Below, in pieces: positions 2,728 to 59,795 of a stretch of DNA of 64,000 nt. The stretch's first letter is position 1. Each line of letters starts with the position of its first letter. This DNA comes from a virus, in the IMG/VR virus record IMGVR_UViG_3300023082_000010, positions 28,421-92,420 of that record, one strand, 5' to 3'. Position numbers and translations under genes: made by a program. The notes below the pieces were generated by a model. That model saw nothing but the letters and a program-made list of their open reading frames with translations. It had not been told where the DNA came from and searched no databases.

Positions 2728-3041
2728 TCTTTAGGCTCTTCTGTTACTGTATACTGCCAAAGCGACTTTTGTTTTATGAAACGTGCAAAAAGTCCCAATG
2801 CGTTAAAAGAAAACATCAAGATTGCGTAGGTTTGTGTGGTCATCGTAGGTTCAAGCAACCCAAGAAACGGCAACAATTGGTCGATGAACGTAAGTATTAC
2901 AGATGAGAGGTGGAGCCAAAATGACCAAGTAAGAAAGATTTGCCTCCAGTTACTGACGACGGAAACCTTTGAAACTTTTTCCTTTACAATCTCTGCGCTT
3001 TGGGGTATAGTCAATTCTGAGGTAGGAGTTTCTTCTGCCAT
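2724..3041 (-). CDS. Holin (two TMDs)
   Basis: NWRQIFLTWSFW motif, 2 TMDs, ARFIKQ basic C-terminus; lies between endolysin and spanins. Confidence 0.7.
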   Translation of the reverse strand: MAEETPTSELTIPQSAEIVKEKVSKVSVVSNWRQIFLTWSFWLHLSSVILTFIDQLLPFLGLLEPTMTTQTYAILMFSFNALGLFARFIKQKSLWQYTVTEEPKE

Positions 3042-3072
3042 AATTTAATATTCTTGATAAAGGTGATATATA

Positions 3073-3680
3073 ATGAAGTTAGTTTATGGTGTGGGTATAA
3101 ATGATGCTGATTACACCCTCAGTAAATATGAAAAATTTGTCAGCGCGGAGGGCTTATTGAAGGTTCGTCAGGTATGGGTTTGTCCTTTTTATTCGAGATG
3201 GCAATCCATGATTACTCGCTGTTACAGTAAGAATTTTCTTATAGAGAATCCATCCTACAAAGATTGTACCGTCTGTGAGGAATGGTTAACTTTTAGTAAA
3301 TTTAAATCTTGGATGGAGACGCAGAATTGGAGTGGTAAGACCCTTGATAAAGATATATTGTGTAAAGGCAATAAAATTTACTCTCCCGAATTTTGTGTTT
3401 TTGTTCATGCCAAAGTAAATCTTTTTATCATTGAACGTGAGAGTAAACGTGGTGAATGGCCTATTGGTGTTCACTTTGAAGAGAGCTACCAAAAGTATAA
3501 ATCCACAATAACTTCTAACAATAAGACTGTAAACTTAGGTAGGTATGATACAGCTGAGCAAGCCCATCAAGCTTGGTTGGACTTTAAGCTTGATGGGCTT
3601 ATATACTAGCTTCAGAGCAAGAAGACGATAGGGTAGCTAAAGCTCTCGTAGAAAGGTACAAAAATTATTCTCGCACATAA
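3073..3680 (+). pseudogene. HNH-type (DKD-variant) homing endonuclease with AP2-like tail; C-terminus frameshifted near 3595
   Basis: W..M..RCY...VCEEW..FSKFKSW...LDKDIL..GNKIYSP..C.FV and NLGRYDTAEQAH. The ORF stops at 3609, but another frame continues AYILASEQEDDRVAKALVERYKNYSRT* to 3680, matching the C-termini of paralogs 45168 (KVVKAL) and 58908 (RVYEAL). Confidence 0.65.
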
Positions 3681-3687
3681 GGCTTTG

Positions 3688-3717
3688 TAAAGCTGTTACA
3701 ACAACATAACAGCTTTA
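3688..3717. terminator. Hairpin between the convergent endonuclease and endolysin genes
   Basis: TAAAGCTGTTA-caacaaca-TAACAGCTTTA followed by a T-run on +. Confidence 0.5.
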
Positions 3718-3733
3718 TTTTAAATCACCAAAA

Positions 3734-4162
3734 TTAAGAGAGAAACAATTCCTTCTCAGCCAACCTGCGTTTAGTCAATCCTGCCAGAACTTTACCACCA
3801 GCTTTATCCCACCTTGGAAACTCAGATGCTGCACCAGTATAATCCAGAGAGTTTAGCTTACGAAGCAAAGTAGAGGATTTGAGATTACCCAGTCCTAAGT
3901 TAAAAGAGAAACTAATCAAAGCAGCATGTTGGTTTTCATTCAAAGGAACTTTAACCAACTCAGCAACACCTTTTTCAAACTTTGCAAGGTCAGATTTTAA
4001 AAGAGTTTCCGCTTGGGATTCAGTAATAACTTGTCCCATATAGACATCAGAGCCAGTGTGTCCATATCCAATAGTCACTACACCAACAGAGTCCTTGTAA
4101 GCTTTTAGCTCAAGTCCCTCAAACTCTTTAATCAGATCAATCCCTTTTTGAGATGTCTTCAT
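3734..4162 (-). CDS. Endolysin, GH24 phage lysozyme
   Basis: E-x8-D-x5-T catalytic motif (EGLELKAYKDSVGVVTIGYGHT), ALISFSFNLG, GLTKRRLAEKELF. Confidence 0.95.
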   Translation of the reverse strand: MKTSQKGIDLIKEFEGLELKAYKDSVGVVTIGYGHTGSDVYMGQVITESQAETLLKSDLAKFEKGVAELVKVPLNENQHAALISFSFNLGLGNLKSSTLLRKLNSLDYTGAASEFPRWDKAGGKVLAGLTKRRLAEKELFLS

Positions 4163-4175
4163 GTTTTATTTCCTC

Positions 4176-4201
4176 AAAAGACATCTGCCCTTACGGGCAG
4201 A
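4176..4201 (-). terminator. Hairpin/terminator between tail fibre and endolysin
   Basis: TCTGCCC-gtaa-GGGCAGA then TGTCTTTTG on minus. Confidence 0.5.
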
Positions 4202-4212
4202 ACATCCCCGTA

Positions 4213-5223
4213 TCAATACCACTCAATAATAATCAGACCACCTGATCCATTACCACCTGTGCCACCACGGTTGCTGCCATTCACACGATAGCAACCACCA
4301 CCACCTCCACCGCCTGCACCAAACTGTCCGGCGTTAACACCCGGATCACCATTGGATTTAGTACCACGGCCGCCCGCACCACCACCACCAAACGGGCTAC
4401 TGGCACCATTACCACCAGCACCACCGGAGCCTGCATTATCATCACCAATGGAGCCAGAAGCGTCTGAGCCACCACCACCATTGGGGTAGCCTGTACCACC
4501 TAGAACACCACCACCAGAACCATTGTTTACATTAGGACCTCCAAGCCCACCATTACCACCATCCAGGGTGAGGAAAGTACCAACTTTGGTGTCTCCGCCA
4601 GCTTGCCCGTTTGGGCCTGTGGTAAATGTACCTTGGAAACCTGATCCACCTGCACCGATAACAACTGCTAGAGTGCTGCCGGGAACTACAGTGAAAGGCA
4701 CTTTGATAATAGACTGTCCAGCACCACCACCGCCTGCGTTAGCACCAATGCGCCCTAATGATCCAGAGGCAGCAGAACCACCTCCAGCCCCACCACCACC
4801 ACCACCTGCAACACCGCTGATGTAGATAGTGGTTTTACCAGCAGGAACTACAAAGTAGCCGCTGCTAATAAACCGCATCATACCAGCAGAGGATACACCA
4901 AATGCTGTAGTCCAAGCACCGGTGGTATCTGTTACAGGGTTTACATTAGAGTTGGTTCTTACCGCACGATAGAGAGTACCGTTGCTGCCTTTGGTGTAGC
5001 TAAGGCTTGCCTGATACTCTGTCGCGTTATCCCACACAGGGATGCCATGTTGGTTTACGTGAGCGTTAAATCTGTCTTGTTTATTATCAAGCCAGTTGAA
5101 ATACTCACGAGGTGGGATAATAGCTTCCCAACCATTTGCAACATAAGCTGCATCTGGAGCTGCAATGTCTCCAGTAGCAGCCCAGATATTGTTAATGTCA
5201 TTAGGTTTGTTTATGTTAGGCAC
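4213..5223 (-). CDS. Tail fibre protein with glycine-rich C-terminal domain
   Basis: N-terminal baseplate-attachment motif (PPREYFNWLDNKQD, WDNATEY); GGGGGG-rich domain ending GGSGGLIIIEW. Confidence 0.85.
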   Translation of the reverse strand: MPNINKPNDINNIWAATGDIAAPDAAYVANGWEAIIPPREYFNWLDNKQDRFNAHVNQHGIPVWDNATEYQASLSYTKGSNGTLYRAVRTNSNVNPVTDTTGAWTTAFGVSSAGMMRFISSGYFVVPAGKTTIYISGVAGGGGGGAGGGSAASGSLGRIGANAGGGGAGQSIIKVPFTVVPGSTLAVVIGAGGSGFQGTFTTGPNGQAGGDTKVGTFLTLDGGNGGLGGPNVNNGSGGGVLGGTGYPNGGGGSDASGSIGDDNAGSGGAGGNGASSPFGGGGAGGRGTKSNGDPGVNAGQFGAGGGGGGGCYRVNGSNRGGTGGNGSGGLIIIEWY

Positions 5224-5224
5224 G

Positions 5225-7495
5225 TTACATCCTCTTTATTACATTTCCGGCAGCAGTATCAACCCACAAACTTCCGGCTGGTAAGCCGCTAGAGGATGTT
5301 GGTAGACTAGAAAGATTTAACTGTTCAAAACTAATACGCCCAAAAACTACAGGCTCTCTTGCGTGGTATAGTCTTATACGGCCCACTGCTAGTGTACCTG
5401 TTGCCCCAGACAAATTTATAAGCTGAAATGTTGGAGCTAACGTATTACTACGGAACTTGAAAGGAAATCGAAACCTTGTCCAACCGATCCCCGGCACTGC
5501 TATTCGTTGAAAAGAGTTTGCACCAGAGCTGTGGGCTATTCTGGCAGTTATCAGAGTTAGAGGAGTAGTACCGTTGGCCTTAAGATCAAACTCAATCCAA
5601 CTTACAGCCCCTGCAACAATTGATCCTGTTGGCAGTACACAGTTAACTGCCGAAAAGTTAGGGAATGTTAGAGCATATGCATCACTTTCTCCGGTGGCAT
5701 CTGTTGTAGTTCCCTGAGAAGTTGACCCACCCGCCAAAGGCATTCCAGAAATCCTGCTATTAAATAACTCTACATACCCTGTCTTGTCATTAGCACCAGA
5801 TGTGTGCGGATAGAAAAGAGTACCCCTCCCTGCATTTTCATAAGACGTGTCAACAAAAGTTGCAGTATAGTTTCCATTACTTGGTGATAAAGGAGGTGTA
5901 GCAAGGCCAGCACTAAGATTAATATTATCCGAGAGAAGGTTTAAGGATGCTGTACCTTCGTTGACAGTAGGCGTTGTTCTAAATTCAAGCAAAAATTTAG
6001 GTGTATTGTACTGTAGTTGGTTATCAGATACTACCAATCCTCGAATATAAGGGGTAGTTGTATACACAATTGAAGGGCTTGATAGATCGCTACCACAGAA
6101 AACATTCTCTGAAATTGTAGCTCCATATACATACTCAGCCGTATCCGCCGACAGATCGGGCATTGCTAGGCCATTTGATGCCCCTGATAATTCAGGGGCA
6201 TAAACGACTCTATAGTCAGTTGCTTGAAGATTCTCAAGGCCAAATTTATTACCGCCCGATATCGTACAACCATGCCCCTCATTCGTTGCGCCCGGTACTA
6301 ACCAAATTGAAATTCGGGGTGTTCCATTTCCAGTTTCAAACTGAATGAAGTCATTAGACTCAACAGCAACACATTGTCCTGCGGTGCGCAGCTTTAGGTG
6401 GATTCTATTTGTAAGGAAGGCATTGCCTTTTATCAGCGATACATCTGCCCAGCGGTTTAGCGCGATACCGATAGTGGATACCGAATTTGCGGCACGGAAA
6501 CTATTGAACTGGATTTTCCAGTACGGGCAATCACTCGCGTTTACATCGATTGCGCAGGCCGTATAACCGATGAATACGTTCTTATGGATCAGCTTTTGAT
6601 AGCTTACGTCCACGCCTGCAAACGTGGACCGGAAGGCACCTAGACCGTTAGCGAATTGCAGGCCTTGAATTTCTAAAACTACCTTGGCGGTGGCGGTATC
6701 GATCAGGCGAGAGGTTGCCCCGAGAATTATTACCGTAGCCTCCGCGCCTTCACCCTCGATAAATAGACGCGTTCCTGTAAATGGATGCCCTGTACCCGTG
6801 TAACGATATGTGCCTTTCTTGAACCATAGACATTTGGAGTTAGTGCTACAGTAAGTAAGCGCGGGATCGATTGCGAAAGTATCATCACTAGCCGCATCGT
6901 TACCGTTAGCACCCCACCACTGAGGGAAAACCTTACCATCAAAGCGGCGTTTTATCCTACGCCCTAATCCATCAACAAACGTAACACCCCCGTCATCGGG
7001 AGTAGTAGTATCGCTTGTGTCGATATAGAATTCACCACCAATACCCGGTGTTACAATTTCAAAAGCTGTTGCTGAACCTGTATATGCACGCATCTGCGCA
7101 TAACTAGCAAATTTCTTGGATAAATTTAGTTGTGATGTTAATGGGCCGCTGTCCCAACCAATTAAATTGGCTCCAAGATCTGTACTATCTTGTCTCGCAA
7201 GATCTGCTCTAAGAGCGGCAGCACTGCCCCCACTTGATATTTCACCTTCGATTATATCTACACGACCATCAATATCAGTGGCTTGTGTTTGAAGGGTGCC
7301 AATATCACTCTCAGCAGTTGTGAGCCTTTGATTAAGATTGAATGTACGATTAGCTAATTGCTGTGCTTGAGCATTTGCATGGCCTGCACTTGGAACACCA
7401 CCGTCAATAACTGGAGCGCCACCAAGAACAGGAGTGGACTTCTCTAGTTGAAAAATCCCTTCTTCATAAATAGGACTCTCAGTTAAGTTGGTCAT
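5225..7495 (-). CDS. Tailspike / receptor-binding protein with right-handed beta-helix (putative depolymerase)
   Basis: N-terminal IFQLEKSTPVLGG...ANAQAQQLANRT anchor; PQWWGANGND..DDTFAI start of a pectate-lyase-3-like helix; CBM-like C-terminal region. Confidence 0.8.
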   Translation of the reverse strand: MTNLTESPIYEEGIFQLEKSTPVLGGAPVIDGGVPSAGHANAQAQQLANRTFNLNQRLTTAESDIGTLQTQATDIDGRVDIIEGEISSGGSAAALRADLARQDSTDLGANLIGWDSGPLTSQLNLSKKFASYAQMRAYTGSATAFEIVTPGIGGEFYIDTSDTTTPDDGGVTFVDGLGRRIKRRFDGKVFPQWWGANGNDAASDDTFAIDPALTYCSTNSKCLWFKKGTYRYTGTGHPFTGTRLFIEGEGAEATVIILGATSRLIDTATAKVVLEIQGLQFANGLGAFRSTFAGVDVSYQKLIHKNVFIGYTACAIDVNASDCPYWKIQFNSFRAANSVSTIGIALNRWADVSLIKGNAFLTNRIHLKLRTAGQCVAVESNDFIQFETGNGTPRISIWLVPGATNEGHGCTISGGNKFGLENLQATDYRVVYAPELSGASNGLAMPDLSADTAEYVYGATISENVFCGSDLSSPSIVYTTTPYIRGLVVSDNQLQYNTPKFLLEFRTTPTVNEGTASLNLLSDNINLSAGLATPPLSPSNGNYTATFVDTSYENAGRGTLFYPHTSGANDKTGYVELFNSRISGMPLAGGSTSQGTTTDATGESDAYALTFPNFSAVNCVLPTGSIVAGAVSWIEFDLKANGTTPLTLITARIAHSSGANSFQRIAVPGIGWTRFRFPFKFRSNTLAPTFQLINLSGATGTLAVGRIRLYHAREPVVFGRISFEQLNLSSLPTSSSGLPAGSLWVDTAAGNVIKRM

Positions 7496-24169: not shown

Positions 24170-24622
24170 TTACAATTCTTCCACAGTAGCGCGGCAACCA
24201 ATGCTGACTCCGCAAATATCACCAGATTTAACTTGCTTCCACAGTTTATCGGAATCACTGTTTCCTTCTGGAAAGTAAAACCACTGTAGCCAAGTACCTT
24301 TTTTAATCATTCGTCCATCATCAAGCATAAAGTCTGAGGGAGAGATAAATGATTGTTCAATCTTTGCAGTTTCAATTTGAACTTGATGAAACAAGTTTGC
24401 TTTATTACAATGAGTGTTAAAGTTAATGCAAGCTTTCTCTACTTCATCAGCAGAATAGATATCACCATGCAAGTCAACAGTGTCAGGCTCAAGAACCACA
24501 AACAAAGCTCTTCGCTGTTCAAGGTCAATAGTTTTGGTCACCTCTACAACAGGTTCTTGTTCCTTTGAACCACCAAAGAATTTCTCAAGCAGTTCGTAAA
24601 GCTTTTCTGATTTATTAGGCAT
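24170..24622 (-). CDS. XkdF-like prohead serine protease (start MPNKSEK)
   Basis: VLEPDTVDLHGD, NLFH, IKKGTW, LWKQVKSGDICGVSIG; the upstream extension in the ORF track overlaps the portal. Confidence 0.8.
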   Translation of the reverse strand: MPNKSEKLYELLEKFFGGSKEQEPVVEVTKTIDLEQRRALFVVLEPDTVDLHGDIYSADEVEKACINFNTHCNKANLFHQVQIETAKIEQSFISPSDFMLDDGRMIKKGTWLQWFYFPEGNSDSDKLWKQVKSGDICGVSIGCRATVEEL

Positions 24623-26117
24623 TTTCTGTATTCCCTGTTGAACTATCACCACTGCCGCCTGTGTTATCACCCGTACCACCGGGAAGCCCTGAACTAAATG
24701 AATCGCCACTTGAGCTTGTCTTTTCAGGCAAGTATTCTTCCATAGGTTCTTTATCCATGTCGTGTGGCTTAGCACCAATAGACTGCCGAGTGATGTTCAA
24801 TACTTCACGGTCAAGTTCAATAGAGCCGGTAGCAGCATAACGTTGAACAGCCTTGGACAAGATATCAAGATCACTTTGTTGAACTTCTTCATATTCCCAG
24901 TAAGGCAATTCGCCTTCTAGGTTCCAGCCATTCATCTTGAATAGAAGATCACGAAGCTCTTTAAGAGTCTCTTGCATACCCATGAGCTTGTCTTCAACAG
25001 CCATTATTACCAAGGAATTCTTGGTATCGGACAGGCTGTAGGAGCCAACCGAACTCTGACCCATCTGAAGGATATCGGCCCAAAGAGCTTGTAAAATAGC
25101 AGAGTTATACCGACCAATGATGTCGTTTGTATTGAATCGATTAGACCCACCAGAGCTTACAAGGTCGAACTCAAATAACAAGTTACCATTATCATCCCGA
25201 TCAGATGGGGTTGTAAGAGATGCCTGTTCATTAGCTTGAATATTACGCCCAATATTCATGTAAGCTTCATAAGCAGCTTTCTTATCATCACTAGCATTCT
25301 CTGCCATGTAATCAGACGGAATCCTAAAATGGGGAATACCATTCAAATCACGAGACAGGCTTATAGCTTCATGCTCTTCAATCTTGGTGCGATACTTCCA
25401 AGCGTAGTAGCACTTTAGCAAAGGGCTTGTACCCATTGGGTTGCCACGGCTGCTGTCACAAGTAAAGTTCAGAAGCTTACTCTTACGAATAAACACTTCA
25501 TCCATACTTGTAGCTTTACCACCGTTAAAACCACCATAGAAATCTAGAATACCTTTGGGATTCTGCCAGAAGCCCAGAAATGTACGACCGTCTTCTGAAA
25601 ACTCAGCACGACTAATGGTGTCTTGTGAACGAATGGGCAATTTTCTAATTGCTACCAAACCATCATCATACTTAGAACCAGCAGACTTCAAACGTTTACG
25701 CAGTACGATTTCATGAGGGGCAAATCCGTAAGTATAAAAACTTACAGCTTCCTTAATAAATGAATACCACGAATGCTCCATGTCATCTTGTACTTGAGCC
25801 AAGAACTTAGCGTGTTTCTTAGTCTCTTCACTAGCATCCACAGGGACATGAACATTCCATTTAACCCTACTCATCATCATCTGAAAGAGGTTAAGACCAG
25901 ATGCAATAGTTGCATCATTGCTCATTGTCTTGTAAGTTTTAGCTGCTTGAGGATATTGAAGTTCTCTGCGCGATTCCTCAAGGATTTGACCATTAATTTG
26001 CTTCAGACCAATTGCACCAGTTTCACTGTAAGGGATACGTGGCACACTTTCAGATCCAGTGGAGAGGTCTAGGCTATCAGCAGCAGCTTTTTTAACGCGT
26101 GCCATAGGCATCACCAT
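24615..26117 (-). CDS. Portal protein
   Basis: YGFAPHEIV, KLPIRSQDTI, NPMGTSPL, GSYSL motifs; lies between terL and protease. Confidence 0.9.
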   Translation of the reverse strand: MVMPMARVKKAAADSLDLSTGSESVPRIPYSETGAIGLKQINGQILEESRRELQYPQAAKTYKTMSNDATIASGLNLFQMMMSRVKWNVHVPVDASEETKKHAKFLAQVQDDMEHSWYSFIKEAVSFYTYGFAPHEIVLRKRLKSAGSKYDDGLVAIRKLPIRSQDTISRAEFSEDGRTFLGFWQNPKGILDFYGGFNGGKATSMDEVFIRKSKLLNFTCDSSRGNPMGTSPLLKCYYAWKYRTKIEEHEAISLSRDLNGIPHFRIPSDYMAENASDDKKAAYEAYMNIGRNIQANEQASLTTPSDRDDNGNLLFEFDLVSSGGSNRFNTNDIIGRYNSAILQALWADILQMGQSSVGSYSLSDTKNSLVIMAVEDKLMGMQETLKELRDLLFKMNGWNLEGELPYWEYEEVQQSDLDILSKAVQRYAATGSIELDREVLNITRQSIGAKPHDMDKEPMEEYLPEKTSSSGDSFSSGLPGGTGDNTGGSGDSSTGNTENA

Positions 26118-26156: not shown

Positions 26157-27560
26157 TCAAAGCCTGAATTCGTTTGTCTTGGTGTAGATGGGAACTGCGA
26201 AGGATGGTACGCTTTTGTTTTGTGCCAAAGTGAGGTAGGCCAAAGAAGCACAGTCTGCCATATCATCGTGGCCCATTTCTCCACTACGTCTCTGTCCATC
26301 AAAAGCTTCAAGTTCCTTGTGAAAGAAATCATTATCCGCTACAATTTTATTCCAAAGATCATTGCAGCAACCTTTCACAATAGAAACAACACCTAGTTCG
26401 GCAGATGCAGCAAAAGGTCTGAAGGAGTCCAGCTTACCTAGTGATGCTCTTTTTGTTTTAACCACATATCCATGTTCAATAATAGAACGAGCTATTAGCA
26501 TAGTAGATGCCTTAGCTGCTGGGTTAGGGTCTTCTCCGAGAATAATTTCTACTTCGGGACCATCCCTTTGAGCACTGTCTAGGATTTGTTTTTCCCAATC
26601 ACCAAATGTTATTCGTGTTCTATAGACATCAAGGATCACATAATTACCATTTCTCAGCTTACCAAGCTTCAATGAGGCGAAGTAATCGGGCGATCTGTTT
26701 CCGTCGTGTGGCAAAGTGCCAGCGAAGTCAAAAACCCGAACTACCTTTGAAAACTCTGAATGGTGGGGTGCTTGAGTCAACACTGGAACAGTATTCCTAT
26801 CGTAATAGGTGCTGTTCTCCGGCTTTGCAAACCAATTCCCATAGAGCAATCGCTCGCGGTCAAGTTTTGGAAGAGATTCCAAATTTGAGCGATATAGTGG
26901 GTTACTTTTCTTCAGTGGGGGGTTATCATCAATAGTGCCAAATAACCCTTGAAAGCTAATTGGCTTTACTTGATCGTCATGTTCGGCTTCTAATTTAGGA
27001 TTTCCGTACTTGTCAATAAGCTCTTGCGCACTTTCACCCCAAACAATATCACCAGCCACTCGGAGCAGATAACGAACTGTGCCATTCTTTTCTGGGTCTG
27101 GGCGGCCAGCTAGTGCATGGCCCTCTGGATATAAATACCATTGTGCGTACTTTAGAAGCCAGCTTGAATTGTCAGGATTGCATGACATGACAATTCCGTG
27201 GACATTCTTCGCCTCAGACCTAAGCCGCGACCAAAGCCACCAAATATCTTCTTCCTCCGCGTGAGTTGCCTCATCATAAAAGATATTTGAAATTTGAATA
27301 CCTTGATATTTCTTAGCTGCGTTAGCATTCTCATAGTGCGAGAAGCTAATCTCTGCACCACTAGAAAATACTAATTTTTGATCTTTCAATCGAATTTTAA
27401 GACTAGGATCATACTGACTATATAGTTTAACTGCTTCCTGAAACAGACCACCAGAAGCCATAATCGCACTGGAGTTCTTACGAATACAATAAGCCTTATA
27501 GTTTGGATCTTCTACGAAACGAAGATGCCGCATTAACCCAACATAACTTTTGGAACTACC
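26157..27560 (-). CDS. terL: Terminase large subunit, exon 2
   Basis: Begins GSSKSY (second half of Walker A); FYDEATH Walker B, SCNPD motif III, FDFAG and HDDMAD nuclease motifs. Confidence 0.95.
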   Translation of the reverse strand, partial: GSSKSYVGLMRHLRFVEDPNYKAYCIRKNSSAIMASGGLFQEAVKLYSQYDPSLKIRLKDQKLVFSSGAEISFSHYENANAAKKYQGIQISNIFYDEATHAEEEDIWWLWSRLRSEAKNVHGIVMSCNPDNSSWLLKYAQWYLYPEGHALAGRPDPEKNGTVRYLLRVAGDIVWGESAQELIDKYGNPKLEAEHDDQVKPISFQGLFGTIDDNPPLKKSNPLYRSNLESLPKLDRERLLYGNWFAKPENSTYYDRNTVPVLTQAPHHSEFSKVVRVFDFAGTLPHDGNRSPDYFASLKLGKLRNGNYVILDVYRTRITFGDWEKQILDSAQRDGPEVEIILGEDPNPAAKASTMLIARSIIEHGYVVKTKRASLGKLDSFRPFAASAELGVVSIVKGCCNDLWNKIVADNDFFHKELEAFDGQRRSGEMGHDDMADCASLAYLTLAQNKSVPSFAVPIYTKTNEFRL

Positions 27561-27790
27561 CAATAAATTCTAAGGTTCGTTAAACCTTCTCACATTTCTA
27601 TGAGGATCGGACTATATCACCTGTTATTTCTAACAGCCCCCCGTTTCGATTGCACTTGCAACCTACTCTGCTACACTCATCACAGATAGTCTCTGAACGT
27701 TACTTATTTCTAAGTCTTCGCTGCTGATTACCTTTAACTTAATAGTAAGGGTTCCAGCAATTAGAGGGGTTTAAAGCGGCCCGTAGTTCA
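27561..27790 (-). ncRNA. Group I self-splicing intron (230 nt, ORF-less, IA2-like) in terL
   Basis: Exon 1 ends in U and the intron ends in G. P1 GCGGCU/GGCCGC has the U.G at the splice site; P10 GAACUAC/GUAGUUC pairs with exon 2. Core elements AAUUGCUGGAA, AAUCAGCAG, UUCAGAGACUA, GAUAUAGUCC. Splicing restores GGAA|GSSKS in frame. Confidence 0.93.
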
Positions 27791-27880
27791 AGCCGCCCCT
27801 CCAACTAGGAGGATTTGAGCATCTGAGAGCAGGTATTGCGATTGGAACCTGCTCTGAGCTGAGATAACAGTTTCTGTCAT
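27791..27880 (-). CDS. terL: Terminase large subunit, exon 1 (MTETVISAQSRFQSQYLLSDAQILLVGGAA)
   Basis: 30 codons with the Q-motif region and first half of Walker A; its ATG overlaps the TGA of the upstream endonuclease (ATGA). Confidence 0.9.
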
Positions 27881-28614
27881 ACTTGCACCAGTTTAATCCT
27901 TTTAGTTCTTGGAGTTTTTGAGGCTGCTGATTTGTTTTCAAACTCAGTAGCGAAAATACAAGCTTCTCTAGAATAAACTTTATTACCTTCAAATTTAAGA
28001 TCTTTGTCTAAATTATAAGGGCTTGTACCGAGCTGTTTAGCTTCCAACCAAGAATCAAAATTATCTAAACTGGAGATGTCTGAAAGAAAGTTAGCAAAAC
28101 AATGCCACCTCGTATCTACGAAACATTTGCCAAAATACCCATGAGCATCTTTAGGATTATAACAACGCTTCATCATATTTGACCAAAGCTGCTTAGCTTG
28201 TTTCCAATAAGGCAGAAGCTCATACTCTCCTAAATAACCAATCCCAAGAAAGGTTTTGCTATAAGGATCGGATATTTTACCCATCCGTACATTATCAATG
28301 TGTACTTCTGCTGTGTAGCCTGTATCATAGAATTGAACTACGCACTTCTTGGACTTCTTACTAATAATTTTTCCACTGTATCCAGCATTATTAGTAAACT
28401 CTTCGTCCCAAGGTTGCCAGTCGTGAGCTGTACATTTTGGTACGCTAAAGTCTCTAACCTTACCAGCAAGTACATTGCCAGCGTCAGCTGTTGTTTCATA
28501 ACCTGTAGTAACAAATCTTAAATGTAGTTTTCGGCCATCTCGACCAATAACTTCCATAATTCCGTAGCCATTCGACTCGTAAAACTGATCATAAATTTTT
28601 CTTACATTAGCCAT
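27877..28614 (-). CDS. Free-standing HNH-type (DKD-variant) endonuclease with two N-terminal repeats
   Basis: WSNMMKRCY, RWHCFANF, LDKDL..GNKVYSREACIFAT..N; duplicated (S/T)N.YG...V.F..TGY.......G.(V/I).D unit. Confidence 0.75.
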   Translation of the reverse strand: MANVRKIYDQFYESNGYGIMEVIGRDGRKLHLRFVTTGYETTADAGNVLAGKVRDFSVPKCTAHDWQPWDEEFTNNAGYSGKIISKKSKKCVVQFYDTGYTAEVHIDNVRMGKISDPYSKTFLGIGYLGEYELLPYWKQAKQLWSNMMKRCYNPKDAHGYFGKCFVDTRWHCFANFLSDISSLDNFDSWLEAKQLGTSPYNLDKDLKFEGNKVYSREACIFATEFENKSAASKTPRTKRIKLVQV

Positions 28615-28653
28615 GTGAATTCTCCCATGCTAGTTAGTTAGATTTTAAACTTC

Positions 28654-28998
28654 TTATTTCTTCTCAAAACTTTCTTCATACTGTCGAATAAGCTGTGCTC
28701 TGTCGCGACCACTAATGCCACGTTCTTTACAGACAGCTTTCAACTTATCCCATTCAAATTCTTCAAGCTGCTCTTTACTATACTGCAACTCAACAGGATA
28801 CACCCGAACACCATTCACCATGTCATCTTCAAGAAACTCTTCAGTTTCAACGTTCAGCATGACTTTATTCGGAAAGGTATTTTTGGTTGGATAACTGCTG
28901 TCAATCGTAGCACCGAGGTTAGCGAACCGTACCACATTCTCAAGAAATTTAATCCCTGAGCTATCTGTTGCTTTAAGCTCTACTTTATAAGTATTCAC
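28654..28998 (-). CDS. Conserved phage protein with C-terminal HeH/Rho-N-like helix pair
   Basis: YSKEQLEEFEWDKLKAVCKERGISGRDRAQLI. Confidence 0.55.
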   Translation of the reverse strand: MNTYKVELKATDSSGIKFLENVVRFANLGATIDSSYPTKNTFPNKVMLNVETEEFLEDDMVNGVRVYPVELQYSKEQLEEFEWDKLKAVCKERGISGRDRAQLIRQYEESFEKK

Positions 28999-45167: not shown

Positions 45168-45743
45168 ATGGCAGGTTTAGTTCATGGTTGGGGTGTAAAT
45201 GACCTTATAGGAAAGTATGACTGTAATTTTAGCTTGTGTCCTATATACAAAACTTGGAAAAAGATGGTTGGTCGTTGTTATGACCCTAAATACCATGAAA
45301 CACGGCCAACTTATATATTGTGCACAGTTACAGAGGAATGGAAACATTTTTCAAATTTTAAAGCTTGGATGGAAACGAAGAACTATACTGGCATGAGCCT
45401 AGATAAGGACATTTTGTCAGCAGGTAACAAAGAGTATAATTCTTCAACTTGCACTTTTGTACCTAAAGCAATTAACTCTTTCTTTACGTTTGTTAAAACT
45501 AAAGATGGTAATCTTCCTTACGGAGTTAGCTGGTGCGTATCTGAAAACTGTTATAAAGCTTATTGTGCCAAGCTAGACGGTAGAAATAAAACTTTGGGAC
45601 GGTTTAAATCACCAGAAATGGCGGGAGAGGTTTACCGGAAATTTAAAAACTCTCTAGCAGCAAAATTAGCTAAAGAGTATGAAGGTGTTATCGAAGATAA
45701 AGTTGTAAAGGCTTTAGTCAATTTTGATGTATCAAATTACTAA
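45168..45743 (+). CDS. HNH-type (DKD-variant) homing endonuclease with AP2-like tail
   Basis: WKKMVGRCY, VTEEWKHFSNFKAW, LDKDILSAGNKEY..TCTFVP..IN, LGRFKSPEMA. Confidence 0.75.
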   Translation: MAGLVHGWGVNDLIGKYDCNFSLCPIYKTWKKMVGRCYDPKYHETRPTYILCTVTEEWKHFSNFKAWMETKNYTGMSLDKDILSAGNKEYNSSTCTFVPKAINSFFTFVKTKDGNLPYGVSWCVSENCYKAYCAKLDGRNKTLGRFKSPEMAGEVYRKFKNSLAAKLAKEYEGVIEDKVVKALVNFDVSNY

Positions 45744-58907: not shown

Positions 58908-59795
58908 TCAGTTGACTTGCCATGAGTATAGAGCCTCATAGACACGGCTGTCAAGAACATTTTTATATTCATCTGCAACAGCTTTTACAGCAAGCTCTTT
59001 TAGCACCTTATACCACTGTTGCCCAGACTCACGAGTTTTGAAACTCTTACTTAATTTAACCCCTGAATAATCTCTAGTTGTGAAGTAAAAAGTTCCAAAC
59101 TTGTCAGGTCCACGTCCTTTCACGTCAGAGCGAATTATTAAGCTGTTGATACGAGCTGGCACGAAGCAACATGCACTTGGGGAGTATTCACGATTACCAC
59201 TCACCAGAATGTCTTTATCCAGCTGCCAACCTTTCAAACCATACCCAACTTGATCTACAGCCCAACCAGCAAAGTTTTGAAAGCACAACCACTCTTTTGT
59301 AACACTAACATCAAAGTAGTTCCTATGCTCATAAGCTGTGCTGTGACAACGTTTTATCATGTGAACCCAATGAGCATAAGCAACTGGATGCGTCTTTGGT
59401 GAAAAATCTCCGTAGCCTATATACCCAACACTTGATGCTATAGGGGCCATGTAGTCCATGATCTTGCCTCTTAGGATATTGCCCGCAGGGTGCCATGCAA
59501 CCGTTCCCGTATTGTTGAATACCACCTTAACATTAAAAGAATCTTTCCATTCAAGAACAGTAACATCCCCATACATAGTTGTAGGTAAAATTTCACCAAT
59601 CCTTTCTCTCAAACAATTGGACCAATCCTTAACTTGTCCGCTACGAATGGCTCCAACTTCTGCCTTCGTAATGTACCCAGTTGCGATAAATTTAACAGTG
59701 GCACTCTTAGGTCCGTCAATCGAGATTACCTGAAGCTTACCGAAGTTATTCGTTTCATAAACACCACCGACCTCAACAGCTTTATAACTTGTCAT
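58908..59795 (-). CDS. HNH-type (DKD-variant) endonuclease with two N-terminal repeats
   Basis: WVHMIKRC, VTKEWLCFQNFAGW, LDKDILVSGNREYSPSACCFVPARIN; same architecture as 27877..28614. Confidence 0.75.
   Translation of the reverse strand: MTSYKAVEVGGVYETNNFGKLQVISIDGPKSATVKFIATGYITKAEVGAIRSGQVKDWSNCLRERIGEILPTTMYGDVTVLEWKDSFNVKVVFNNTGTVAWHPAGNILRGKIMDYMAPIASSVGYIGYGDFSPKTHPVAYAHWVHMIKRCHSTAYEHRNYFDVSVTKEWLCFQNFAGWAVDQVGYGLKGWQLDKDILVSGNREYSPSACCFVPARINSLIIRSDVKGRGPDKFGTFYFTTRDYSGVKLSKSFKTRESGQQWYKVLKELAVKAVADEYKNVLDSRVYEALYSWQVN

Follow-up and report, generated by a model that had tools for sequence, protein, structure and literature searches.

The 64-kb window analyzed here is the whole stretch from position 28,421 to position 92,420 of the 92.4-kb virus record IMGVR_UViG_3300023082_000010, and coordinates are positions in this window unless another locus is named. 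It contains a nuclease open reading frame (ORF) immediately 5′ of the terminase large subunit gene terL, which is itself interrupted at its Walker A motif by a group I intron that contains no ORF (Table 1). We considered it probable that the ORF is an active, mobile, free-standing homing endonuclease gene (HEG) that mobilizes the neighboring Walker A intron in trans through a cut in the terL region. The safest conclusion from sequence comparison was a working free-standing HEG that occupies a known hot spot and lies close enough for easy co-conversion to an intron immobile on its own; trans or collaborative mobilization of that intron is plausible. An earlier note on this DNA had described a free-standing HEG-type gene beside an intron without an ORF, with a D-K-D motif in the nuclease, an ATGA overlap between the nuclease stop and the terL start, and 90 nt between that start and the intron insertion site. 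All of these descriptions were borne out by the sequence and its relatives. The same note read the pair as collaborative homing, and this reading held for the free-standing HEG, the ORF-less intron and the layout, whose recurrence among relatives exceeded expectation, but apparently not for the intron as a general means of self-protection.

The Walker A intron and the neighboring nuclease

The intron was the only group I intron in the window (Rfam RF00028). It matched the full model (positions 1-253) over 27800..27588 with 76.6 bits, compared with a gathering score of 50 (E = 1.4e-19). Its splice sites were fixed by a P1 helix read from the sequence (exon GCGGCU with guide GGCCGC, with a U.G pair at the end), by the G at 27561 that forms the 3′ end of the intron, and by a 5-bp P10 between GUAGU of exon 2 and the ACUAC adjoining the guide. 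The predicted exon join restores GGAA-GSSKS in frame, which is the uninterrupted sequence of relatives L007, L011 and L013. No ORF of at least 40 aa was present within the 230 nt of the intron.

Relatives were drawn from 79 IMG/VR loci and 27 metagenome loci (Joint Genome Institute) with homologs, and all lineage counts come from approximately 40 lineages, represented by metagenomic fragments; the metagenome loci contributed few close relatives. At least three recurrent terL intron sites were found in the phage group: site 1 in Walker A, site 2 before Walker B, and site 3 between HDD and xxD. The terL introns grouped by insertion site, site-1 introns being 68-81% identical to one another and 44-64% identical to introns elsewhere. 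The window intron was 81% identical over aligned core columns (170-182) to the site-1 introns of L019, L021, L022 and L009, 72% identical to that of L027, and 68-70% identical to those of Vibrio phages R16F and 1.063.O. Introns of the GGAA-GSxKS type were all 213-248 nt long and all ORF-less; more divergent Walker A introns, inserted a few bases away, were found in L010, L014, L026, L030 and L028. The site-1 lineage was common to terL genes that are only 30% identical. An ORF-less lineage found at one site in terminases this divergent must have been moved by something in trans.

The nuclease matched PHROG 2081, labeled 'HNH endonuclease' (E = 1.3e-48), and more weakly PHROG 953 and PHROG 374, which carry the same label. 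A large protein collection yielded 285 homologs, mostly 235-255 aa long and unnamed. No Pfam or NCBIfam model, HNH models included, matched the window protein or 26 homologs, and protein and profile searches of the PDB gave no match. Residues D203-K204-D205, N211 and N227 were invariant in an alignment of 27 homologs, and hhalign paired the D-K-D block with LDR...Y..NCRW in the nucleases of PHROG 374. An AlphaFold2 (AF2) model of the protein (predicted local distance difference test score, pLDDT, 85.9) and its fold matches placed two tandem small β-barrel repeats of the Tudor/SH3/KOW-like kind in residues 1-117; in the model, a catalytic-type domain with a helical and a ββα region occupied residues 118-232. 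Residues 232-245 formed a disordered tail unlike the family consensus. The best solved match of the catalytic-type domain was PacI (3m7k_A), and it was weak (Z 4.9, root-mean-square deviation 3.6 Å, 93 residues). Foldseek found nothing significant with the C-terminal domain, and with the whole model it matched the N-terminal tandem barrels only. The fold evidence for a ββα-metal nuclease is thus weak, and the canonical HNH catalytic histidine of the first strand is absent, its position being occupied by the invariant D-K-D. The earlier label 'HNH-type' agreed with the PHROG labels and the weak PacI match, but not with the Pfam result or the missing histidine; 'HNH-like, D-K-D variant' appears to be a fair working label.

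Between the window nuclease and its nearest relatives, the proportion of nonsynonymous differences (pN) was 0.16-0.18 and that of synonymous differences (pS) was approximately 0.75. Because pN was low while synonymous sites were saturated, the gene is under purifying selection; the ratio of nonsynonymous to synonymous substitution rates (dN/dS) between the L018 and L019 nucleases was approximately 0.08. The N-terminal repeats diverged faster than the catalytic domain across the family, in a pattern that does not separate free-standing from intron-encoded members. If D-K-D marked a dead HNH site, the ORF could be an inactive remnant that no longer cuts DNA, and both the missing histidine and the off-consensus C-terminal tail would suit such a remnant. 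However, the five residues are invariant across divergent members, intron-encoded ones included, and the ORF is intact, full-length and under strong purifying selection, so that we regard loss of activity as very improbable.

One nuclease family in two terL layouts

Nearly all family members with at least 40% identity were located in the terL-portal region, in two layouts. In approximately 30 loci, including Pseudomonas phage KIL1, the nuclease lay in the 3′ part of terL, inside the site-3 intron. The main terL exon ended in ...(H/K)DD and was followed directly by a complete group I core; the nuclease ORF began a few tens of bases past this core; and approximately 45 nt past its stop codon a short exon (xVDAxxDAF..., the conserved end of the terminase nuclease domain) ran to the terL stop just before the portal gene. 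Because the nuclease stood between a group I core and the terminal terL exon in each of the approximately 30 such loci, it is intron-encoded at site 3. In the record of KIL1 itself (L004; NC_030934.1, Pseudomonas phage vB_PsyM_KIL1), the RefSeq terL, a two-piece join, terminates at a stop within another group I intron (core 3249-3471), the second of the gene and missing from the annotation. This intron also encloses BH774_gp152 (3498-4034), annotated as 'HNH endonuclease', and the terminal terL exon (approximately 4056-4166; QVDATSDAF...), just before the portal gene, is unannotated.

The other layout was found in 11 lineages (the window, L018, the L019-22 group, L023/24, L025, L026/L098, L027, L029, L030, L099 and L104). 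Here the nuclease was a free-standing gene, flanked by a small conserved gene on its upstream side and by terL on the other, and in most cases it overlapped the terL start. The window nuclease was 40-58% identical to the approximately 30 site-3 intron ORFs, and all fell in one tree; it lies outside any intron itself, and site 3 of the window is uninterrupted. An ORF-less site-3 intron was kept in 9 of the 11 free-standing lineages, the window and L018 having none. In the maximum-likelihood tree the free-standing genes clustered, requiring one or two state changes, a number matched by 0 of 500 label shuffles. With midpoint rooting, intron-encoded genes appeared on both sides of the root. For want of an established root, the direction in which the gene moved between the intron-encoded and free-standing states is only a lean.

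In four of the free-standing loci (L018:4491-4520, L019:1172-1200, L022 and L027), the conserved C-terminal tail of the nuclease (..NGRY.) overlapped, in another frame, the conserved terL start (M.DMSD..), and the nuclease cassette appears to supply the terL start and first codons. The tail of the window nuclease differs from the ..NGRY. type, and its overlap with terL is a plain ATGA.

The nuclease gene showed a history of its own. Between the window and L019-L022, the nucleases were 72-74% identical, compared with 30% for terL, 29-35% for the upstream gene and 37-41% for the portal gene. The nuclease tree disagreed with terL, pairing L025 with L027 and L029 with L030 despite their different terL types, and no nuclease was present at this locus in the close relatives L007, L008, L011, L013 and L016 (terL 68-82% identical). 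The 92.4-kb record contained six members of the nuclease superfamily (PHROG 953/2081/374), including the terL-adjacent gene; three of the others lie in the window and two ahead of its start. These five paralogs were scattered and none stood beside an intron. One lay by holin-like and tail-fiber genes and one between PhoH-like and protease genes, and one had the N-terminal repeats. The seg and mob genes of T4-type phages show the same scatter. Judged by these relationships, the window ORF is a mobile selfish homing endonuclease gene and no packaging factor.

A packaging role would make the ORF a domesticated accessory resembling the HK97 gp74 HNH protein, which stimulates terminase cleavage. 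Proteins of the gp74 type are small HNH proteins of the canonical kind, conserved along with their terminase (cited in PMC10448857 and PMC3592412), and the window gene is like them in being a nuclease-like gene next to terminase genes. It adjoins terL and portal in nearly all homolog-bearing loci and is under purifying selection, and Barth et al. noted that the two readings need not be mutually exclusive (PMC10448857). In contrast to gp74, the window gene is sporadic, being absent at the locus in close relatives; its family sits inside a self-splicing-type intron in most phages and has several paralogs scattered by unrelated genes; its tree conflicts with that of terL; and its architecture is different, without a Pfam HNH domain. 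We therefore regard domestication for packaging as highly unlikely.

In L013, which has neither nuclease nor intron, the slot 5′ of terL was occupied by a 212-aa ORF with a P-loop (L013:3258-3896), with weak matches to a terminase large-subunit PHROG and to a DEAD-like helicase. It may be a foreign terminase ATPase fragment left by recombination.

Linkage between nuclease and Walker A intron

Five nuclease types occupied the slot 5′ of exon 1 in intron-bearing phages: PHROG 2081, PHROG 374 (L009 and L014), PHROG 655/NUMOD3 (L010), T5orf172/MUG113 (R16F) and NUMOD4-HNH_3 (1.063.O). The Walker A intron was present in 12 of 17 lineages with any upstream nuclease and in 4 of 23 lineages without one (odds ratio approximately 11, P approximately 0.001, uncorrected for phylogeny or ascertainment). 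Within the nuclease family, it was present in 7 of 11 free-standing and 4 of 19 intron-encoded lineages (P = 0.047, uncorrected for phylogeny). Two of the loci in these counts were found through the intron itself. All 11 free-standing lineages had at least one ORF-less terL intron within the approximately 2-kb co-conversion range reported for T4 (PMC2790892).

We propose that the nuclease gene would have taken the slot just 5′ of terL, which is held by unrelated nuclease genes in other phages, and that its fusion to the terL start by the ATGA overlap would leave terL expression undisturbed. In a mixed infection, the enzyme would nick or cut the terL region of a phage without the nuclease. The cut would most likely fall in the conserved 5′ part of terL, because, in the four divergent terL types (W, X, Y and Z), no sequence close to the insertion point other than Walker A DNA is conserved. 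Repair on the donor template would then copy the nuclease gene together with neighboring DNA, including the Walker A intron 90 nt away. The intron would thereby be mobilized in trans, either by collaborative homing (cut at the intron site) or by trans homing of the MobE type (cut nearby).

Besides the absent histidine and the weak fold match, several observations on the relatives weigh against this interpretation. Four of the 11 free-standing lineages (L018, L023/24, L025 and L029) had an uninterrupted Walker A, and the intron thus appears not to be generally needed for self-protection. The L018 nuclease is close to that of the window (76% identity; N-terminal repeats 74-81%), and the Walker A DNA of L018 differs from the spliced junction of the window at approximately 15 of 33 bases. 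Uninterrupted alleles may be immune by sequence divergence; when the Walker A DNA of nuclease-bearing intron-less alleles was compared with the window junction, no signal was found, L018 (15/33) being the most divergent allele and no outlier (others 8-13). Conversely, the Walker A intron occurred without an upstream nuclease in four lineages (L028, L039, L041 and the L047 group). Intron presence tracked terL type (types X and Z have it, Y lacks it and W is mixed), not nuclease clade. The sequence separating the two elements, exon 1, was unrelated in the window and L019; nuclease and intron therefore did not travel as one contiguous block. Finally, no raised identity of the flanking terL sequence marked a recent co-conversion tract. 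One candidate tract, with 96.5% identity between the window and L012 in the first 87 residues of exon 2, was rejected as ordinary conservation of the region: there the window and the nuclease-less L013 were 98% identical, and nucleotide identity was 0.79, compared with 0.72-0.82 for other pairs.

Co-occurrence across related phages, the check proposed in the earlier note, thus yielded a positive association with exceptions in both directions. The arrangement which that note took to speak against its reading, the nuclease commonly beside an intact intron-less terL, was seen in the four lineages listed above, whose Walker A DNA diverges. As judged from these loci, the comparisons show that the coupling of nuclease and intron is loose, not obligate, and such coupling fits trans homing at least as well as strict collaborative homing.

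Strict collaborative homing is a special case of the mobilization proposed above, in which the enzyme cuts intron-less terL exactly at the Walker A insertion site and the intron protects its own allele. The 90 nt between nuclease gene and insertion site, the conservation of Walker A DNA in all four terL types, and the intron sub-lineage (81% identity) shared by two of the three contexts in the nuclease clade of the window would all accord with it, and precedents exist in F-CphI of S-PM2 and in T3/T7-like phages (PMC3984707, PMC10448857). A recipient that was cut at the insertion site and then repaired from an intron-bearing donor should, however, acquire the intron as well, whereas L025 and L027, whose nucleases are sisters, differ in whether they have it, and Walker A is intact in L023/24, L025, L029 and L018, the last of the same nuclease clade as the window. 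We consider the strict form rather unlikely; a cut at precisely the insertion site, combined with immunity conferred by the intron, is a doubtful, if somewhat better, candidate.

That the majority of the family is encoded in another terL intron raises other possible nuclease targets. If the target were site 3 or lay outside terL, it would be unrelated to the Walker A intron, and two selfish elements would have piled up independently in one hot spot. Such co-residence would accord with the ORF-less site-3 intron of 9 of the 11 free-standing lineages and with the Walker A introns that lack an upstream nuclease; in phages with many introns and HEGs, moreover, both elements would be expected from the load itself. 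Neither the window nor L018 has a site-3 intron, however, and the site-3 DNA of the window is unlike the conserved X/Z-type junction between AAAGACGAT and CAAGTTGAC, so that an enzyme still specific for site 3 would find no evident target in the terL type of the window. The nuclease is also found upstream in four terL types, a recurrence suggestive of a cut near the 5′ end of terL, and upstream nuclease and Walker A intron are positively associated. Independent co-residence appears improbable.

We tentatively suggest, as a scenario that is on balance doubtful, that one nuclease lineage moved between the site-3 intron and the free-standing position, and that the free-standing branch was re-targeted to Walker A DNA, driving itself and the ORF-less intron between phages with 30%-identical terminases. 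If so, the lineage would represent a natural series of nucleases and introns joining and separating.

Intron content also varied among close relatives. Two pairs of phages with nearly identical intron-encoded nucleases differed in the number of their other terL introns, with three in L039 and one in L042, and two in L028 and one in L046. The DNA of L028 and L046 is 93-97% identical, and the Walker A intron was exactly what set them apart. Both pairs are natural near-isogenic variants for intron presence.

Known systems and other features of the locus

The layout of the window has already been published for terL of the vibriophage ICP1, and the window is a further case of that kind. In ICP1, a short N-terminal exon is joined to the rest of terL by splicing, as RNA-seq and reverse transcription PCR showed, and a T5orf172 HEG lies next to this exon (Barth, Dunham and Seed 2023, PMC10448857). 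The authors called the layout collaborative homing, offering HEG turnover as an alternative (PMC10448857). Both loci have a short N-terminal and a large exon, an intron without a HEG, and a free-standing HEG by the N-terminal exon. They differ in the nuclease, which is GIY-YIG-like (T5orf172) in ICP1 and of the PHROG 2081 D-K-D type in the window, in the additional occurrence of the window family inside an intron at another terL site, and in the evidence for splicing, which is sequence-based for the window. Vibrio phage R16F combines an ICP1-like layout, with a T5orf172/MUG113 ORF, and the Walker A intron lineage of the window. In its record (L002; OP793884.1, Vibrio phage vB_VpaM_R16F), terL is annotated over 2878-5368 as five 'terminase large subunit' coding sequences separated by four group I introns (72-94 bits), and the first terL exon shares its initial 4 nt with a 394-aa T5orf172/MUG113 nuclease ORF.

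In collaborative homing the nuclease target is the intron insertion site and both elements are co-inherited (PMC3984707). Insertion-site cleavage was shown experimentally for F-CphI, which is paired with the psbA intron in cyanophage S-PM2, and for free-standing HEGs of T3/T7-like phages (PMC3984707); F-CphI has an Endo VII-type motif (PMC6083498). In contrast to F-CphI, the nuclease gene of the window is in an upstream position, where it overlaps the start codon, and relatives often uncouple nuclease and intron. T4 MobE is a free-standing HEG of the HNH family beside the nrdB intron, and crosses have demonstrated that it is active (Wilson and Edgell 2009, PMC2790892). It nicks away from the insertion site, and the nrdB intron is co-converted because it lies within recombination distance, co-conversion extending to approximately 2 kb (PMC2790892). 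MobE resembles the window nuclease as a free-standing HEG beside an intron unable to move by itself, whereas the nrdB intron keeps a defunct HEG (I-TevIII) and the window intron has no ORF at all. Among the systems compared, the looser model of the MobE type appears to fit the window data best.

To the published layout, the window and its relatives add an uncharacterized family of nucleases with members both within terL introns and apart from them, a Walker A-specific ORF-less intron lineage common to distant phages, and natural variants that lend themselves to experiments. It has long been asked by what means introns lacking an ORF survive and spread, and how separate nuclease and ribozyme parts come together as mobile introns, but natural test cases are few. 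In these phages a single essential gene exists in many natural variants, with the nuclease in or out of an intron, at least three recurrent intron sites, five nuclease types in a single slot and near-isogenic pairs that differ only by an intron. With these variants, cleavage assays and crosses could separate strict collaborative homing, looser trans homing and co-residence.

Table 1. Features of the terL locus and further nuclease paralogs in the window (nt, nucleotides; aa, amino acids)
Feature	Coordinates	Strand	Remarks
Group I intron, ORF-less, site 1	27561..27790	-	230 nt; guide sequence 27776..27787
Free-standing nuclease ORF	28614..27877	-	245 aa
Shine-Dalgarno-like GGGAGA	28621..28626	-	6 nt ahead of nuclease ATG; read from sequence
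ATGA overlap	27877..27880	-	nuclease TGA (27879..27877) on terL ATG (27880..27878)
D203-K204-D205 codons	28000..28008	-	invariant motif
N211 codon	27982..27984	-	invariant
N227 codon	27934..27936	-	invariant
terL exon 1	27880..27791	-	30 codons, 90 nt; ends ...LLVGGAA (GGAA, first half of Walker A)
terL exon 2	27560..26157	-	begins GSSKS; Terminase_6N and terminase nuclease domain (Pfam)
Site 2, intron position in relatives	27300/27299	-	just before Walker B, after exon-2 residue 87; uninterrupted in window
Site 3, intron position in relatives	26262/26261	-	between HDD and MAD; uninterrupted in window (reads GHDD-MADCAS)
up114, conserved gene	28654..28998	-	114 aa; directly 5′ of nuclease
Portal gene	24615..26117	-	3′ of terL; homologous to annotated portal of phage KIL1
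Nuclease paralog	3073-3609	+	PHROG 953/2081/374
Nuclease paralog	45168-45743	+	PHROG 953/2081/374
Nuclease paralog	58908-59795	-	PHROG 953/2081/374

The nuclease, terL, up114 and portal genes are all on the minus strand. The terL start at 27880 is unambiguous, because an in-frame TAA (read from the sequence, as is the following signal) lies 15 nt 5′ of the ATG with no other start codon between. The only ribosome-binding signal of terL itself was a weak GGUG 6 nt 5′ of the ATG, and together with the ATGA overlap this is compatible with translational coupling. A scan for promoters and terminators found sites no more numerous than expected by chance. The small upstream gene, up114, adjoins terL directly in relatives without the nuclease and had no match in Pfam, PHROG and family searches. 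Its position would suit a small terminase subunit, an identity that no tested evidence favors.

In current annotations, terL of these phages is routinely mis-called as truncated or split, and the nuclease is listed as an ordinary neighbor. The portal genes of relatives were also interrupted (L011:6140-7115, L015:6637-7700, L053:5425-6474 and L016:6719-7000), some of the interruptions being introns with inserts of approximately 1 kb that may hold further nuclease ORFs.

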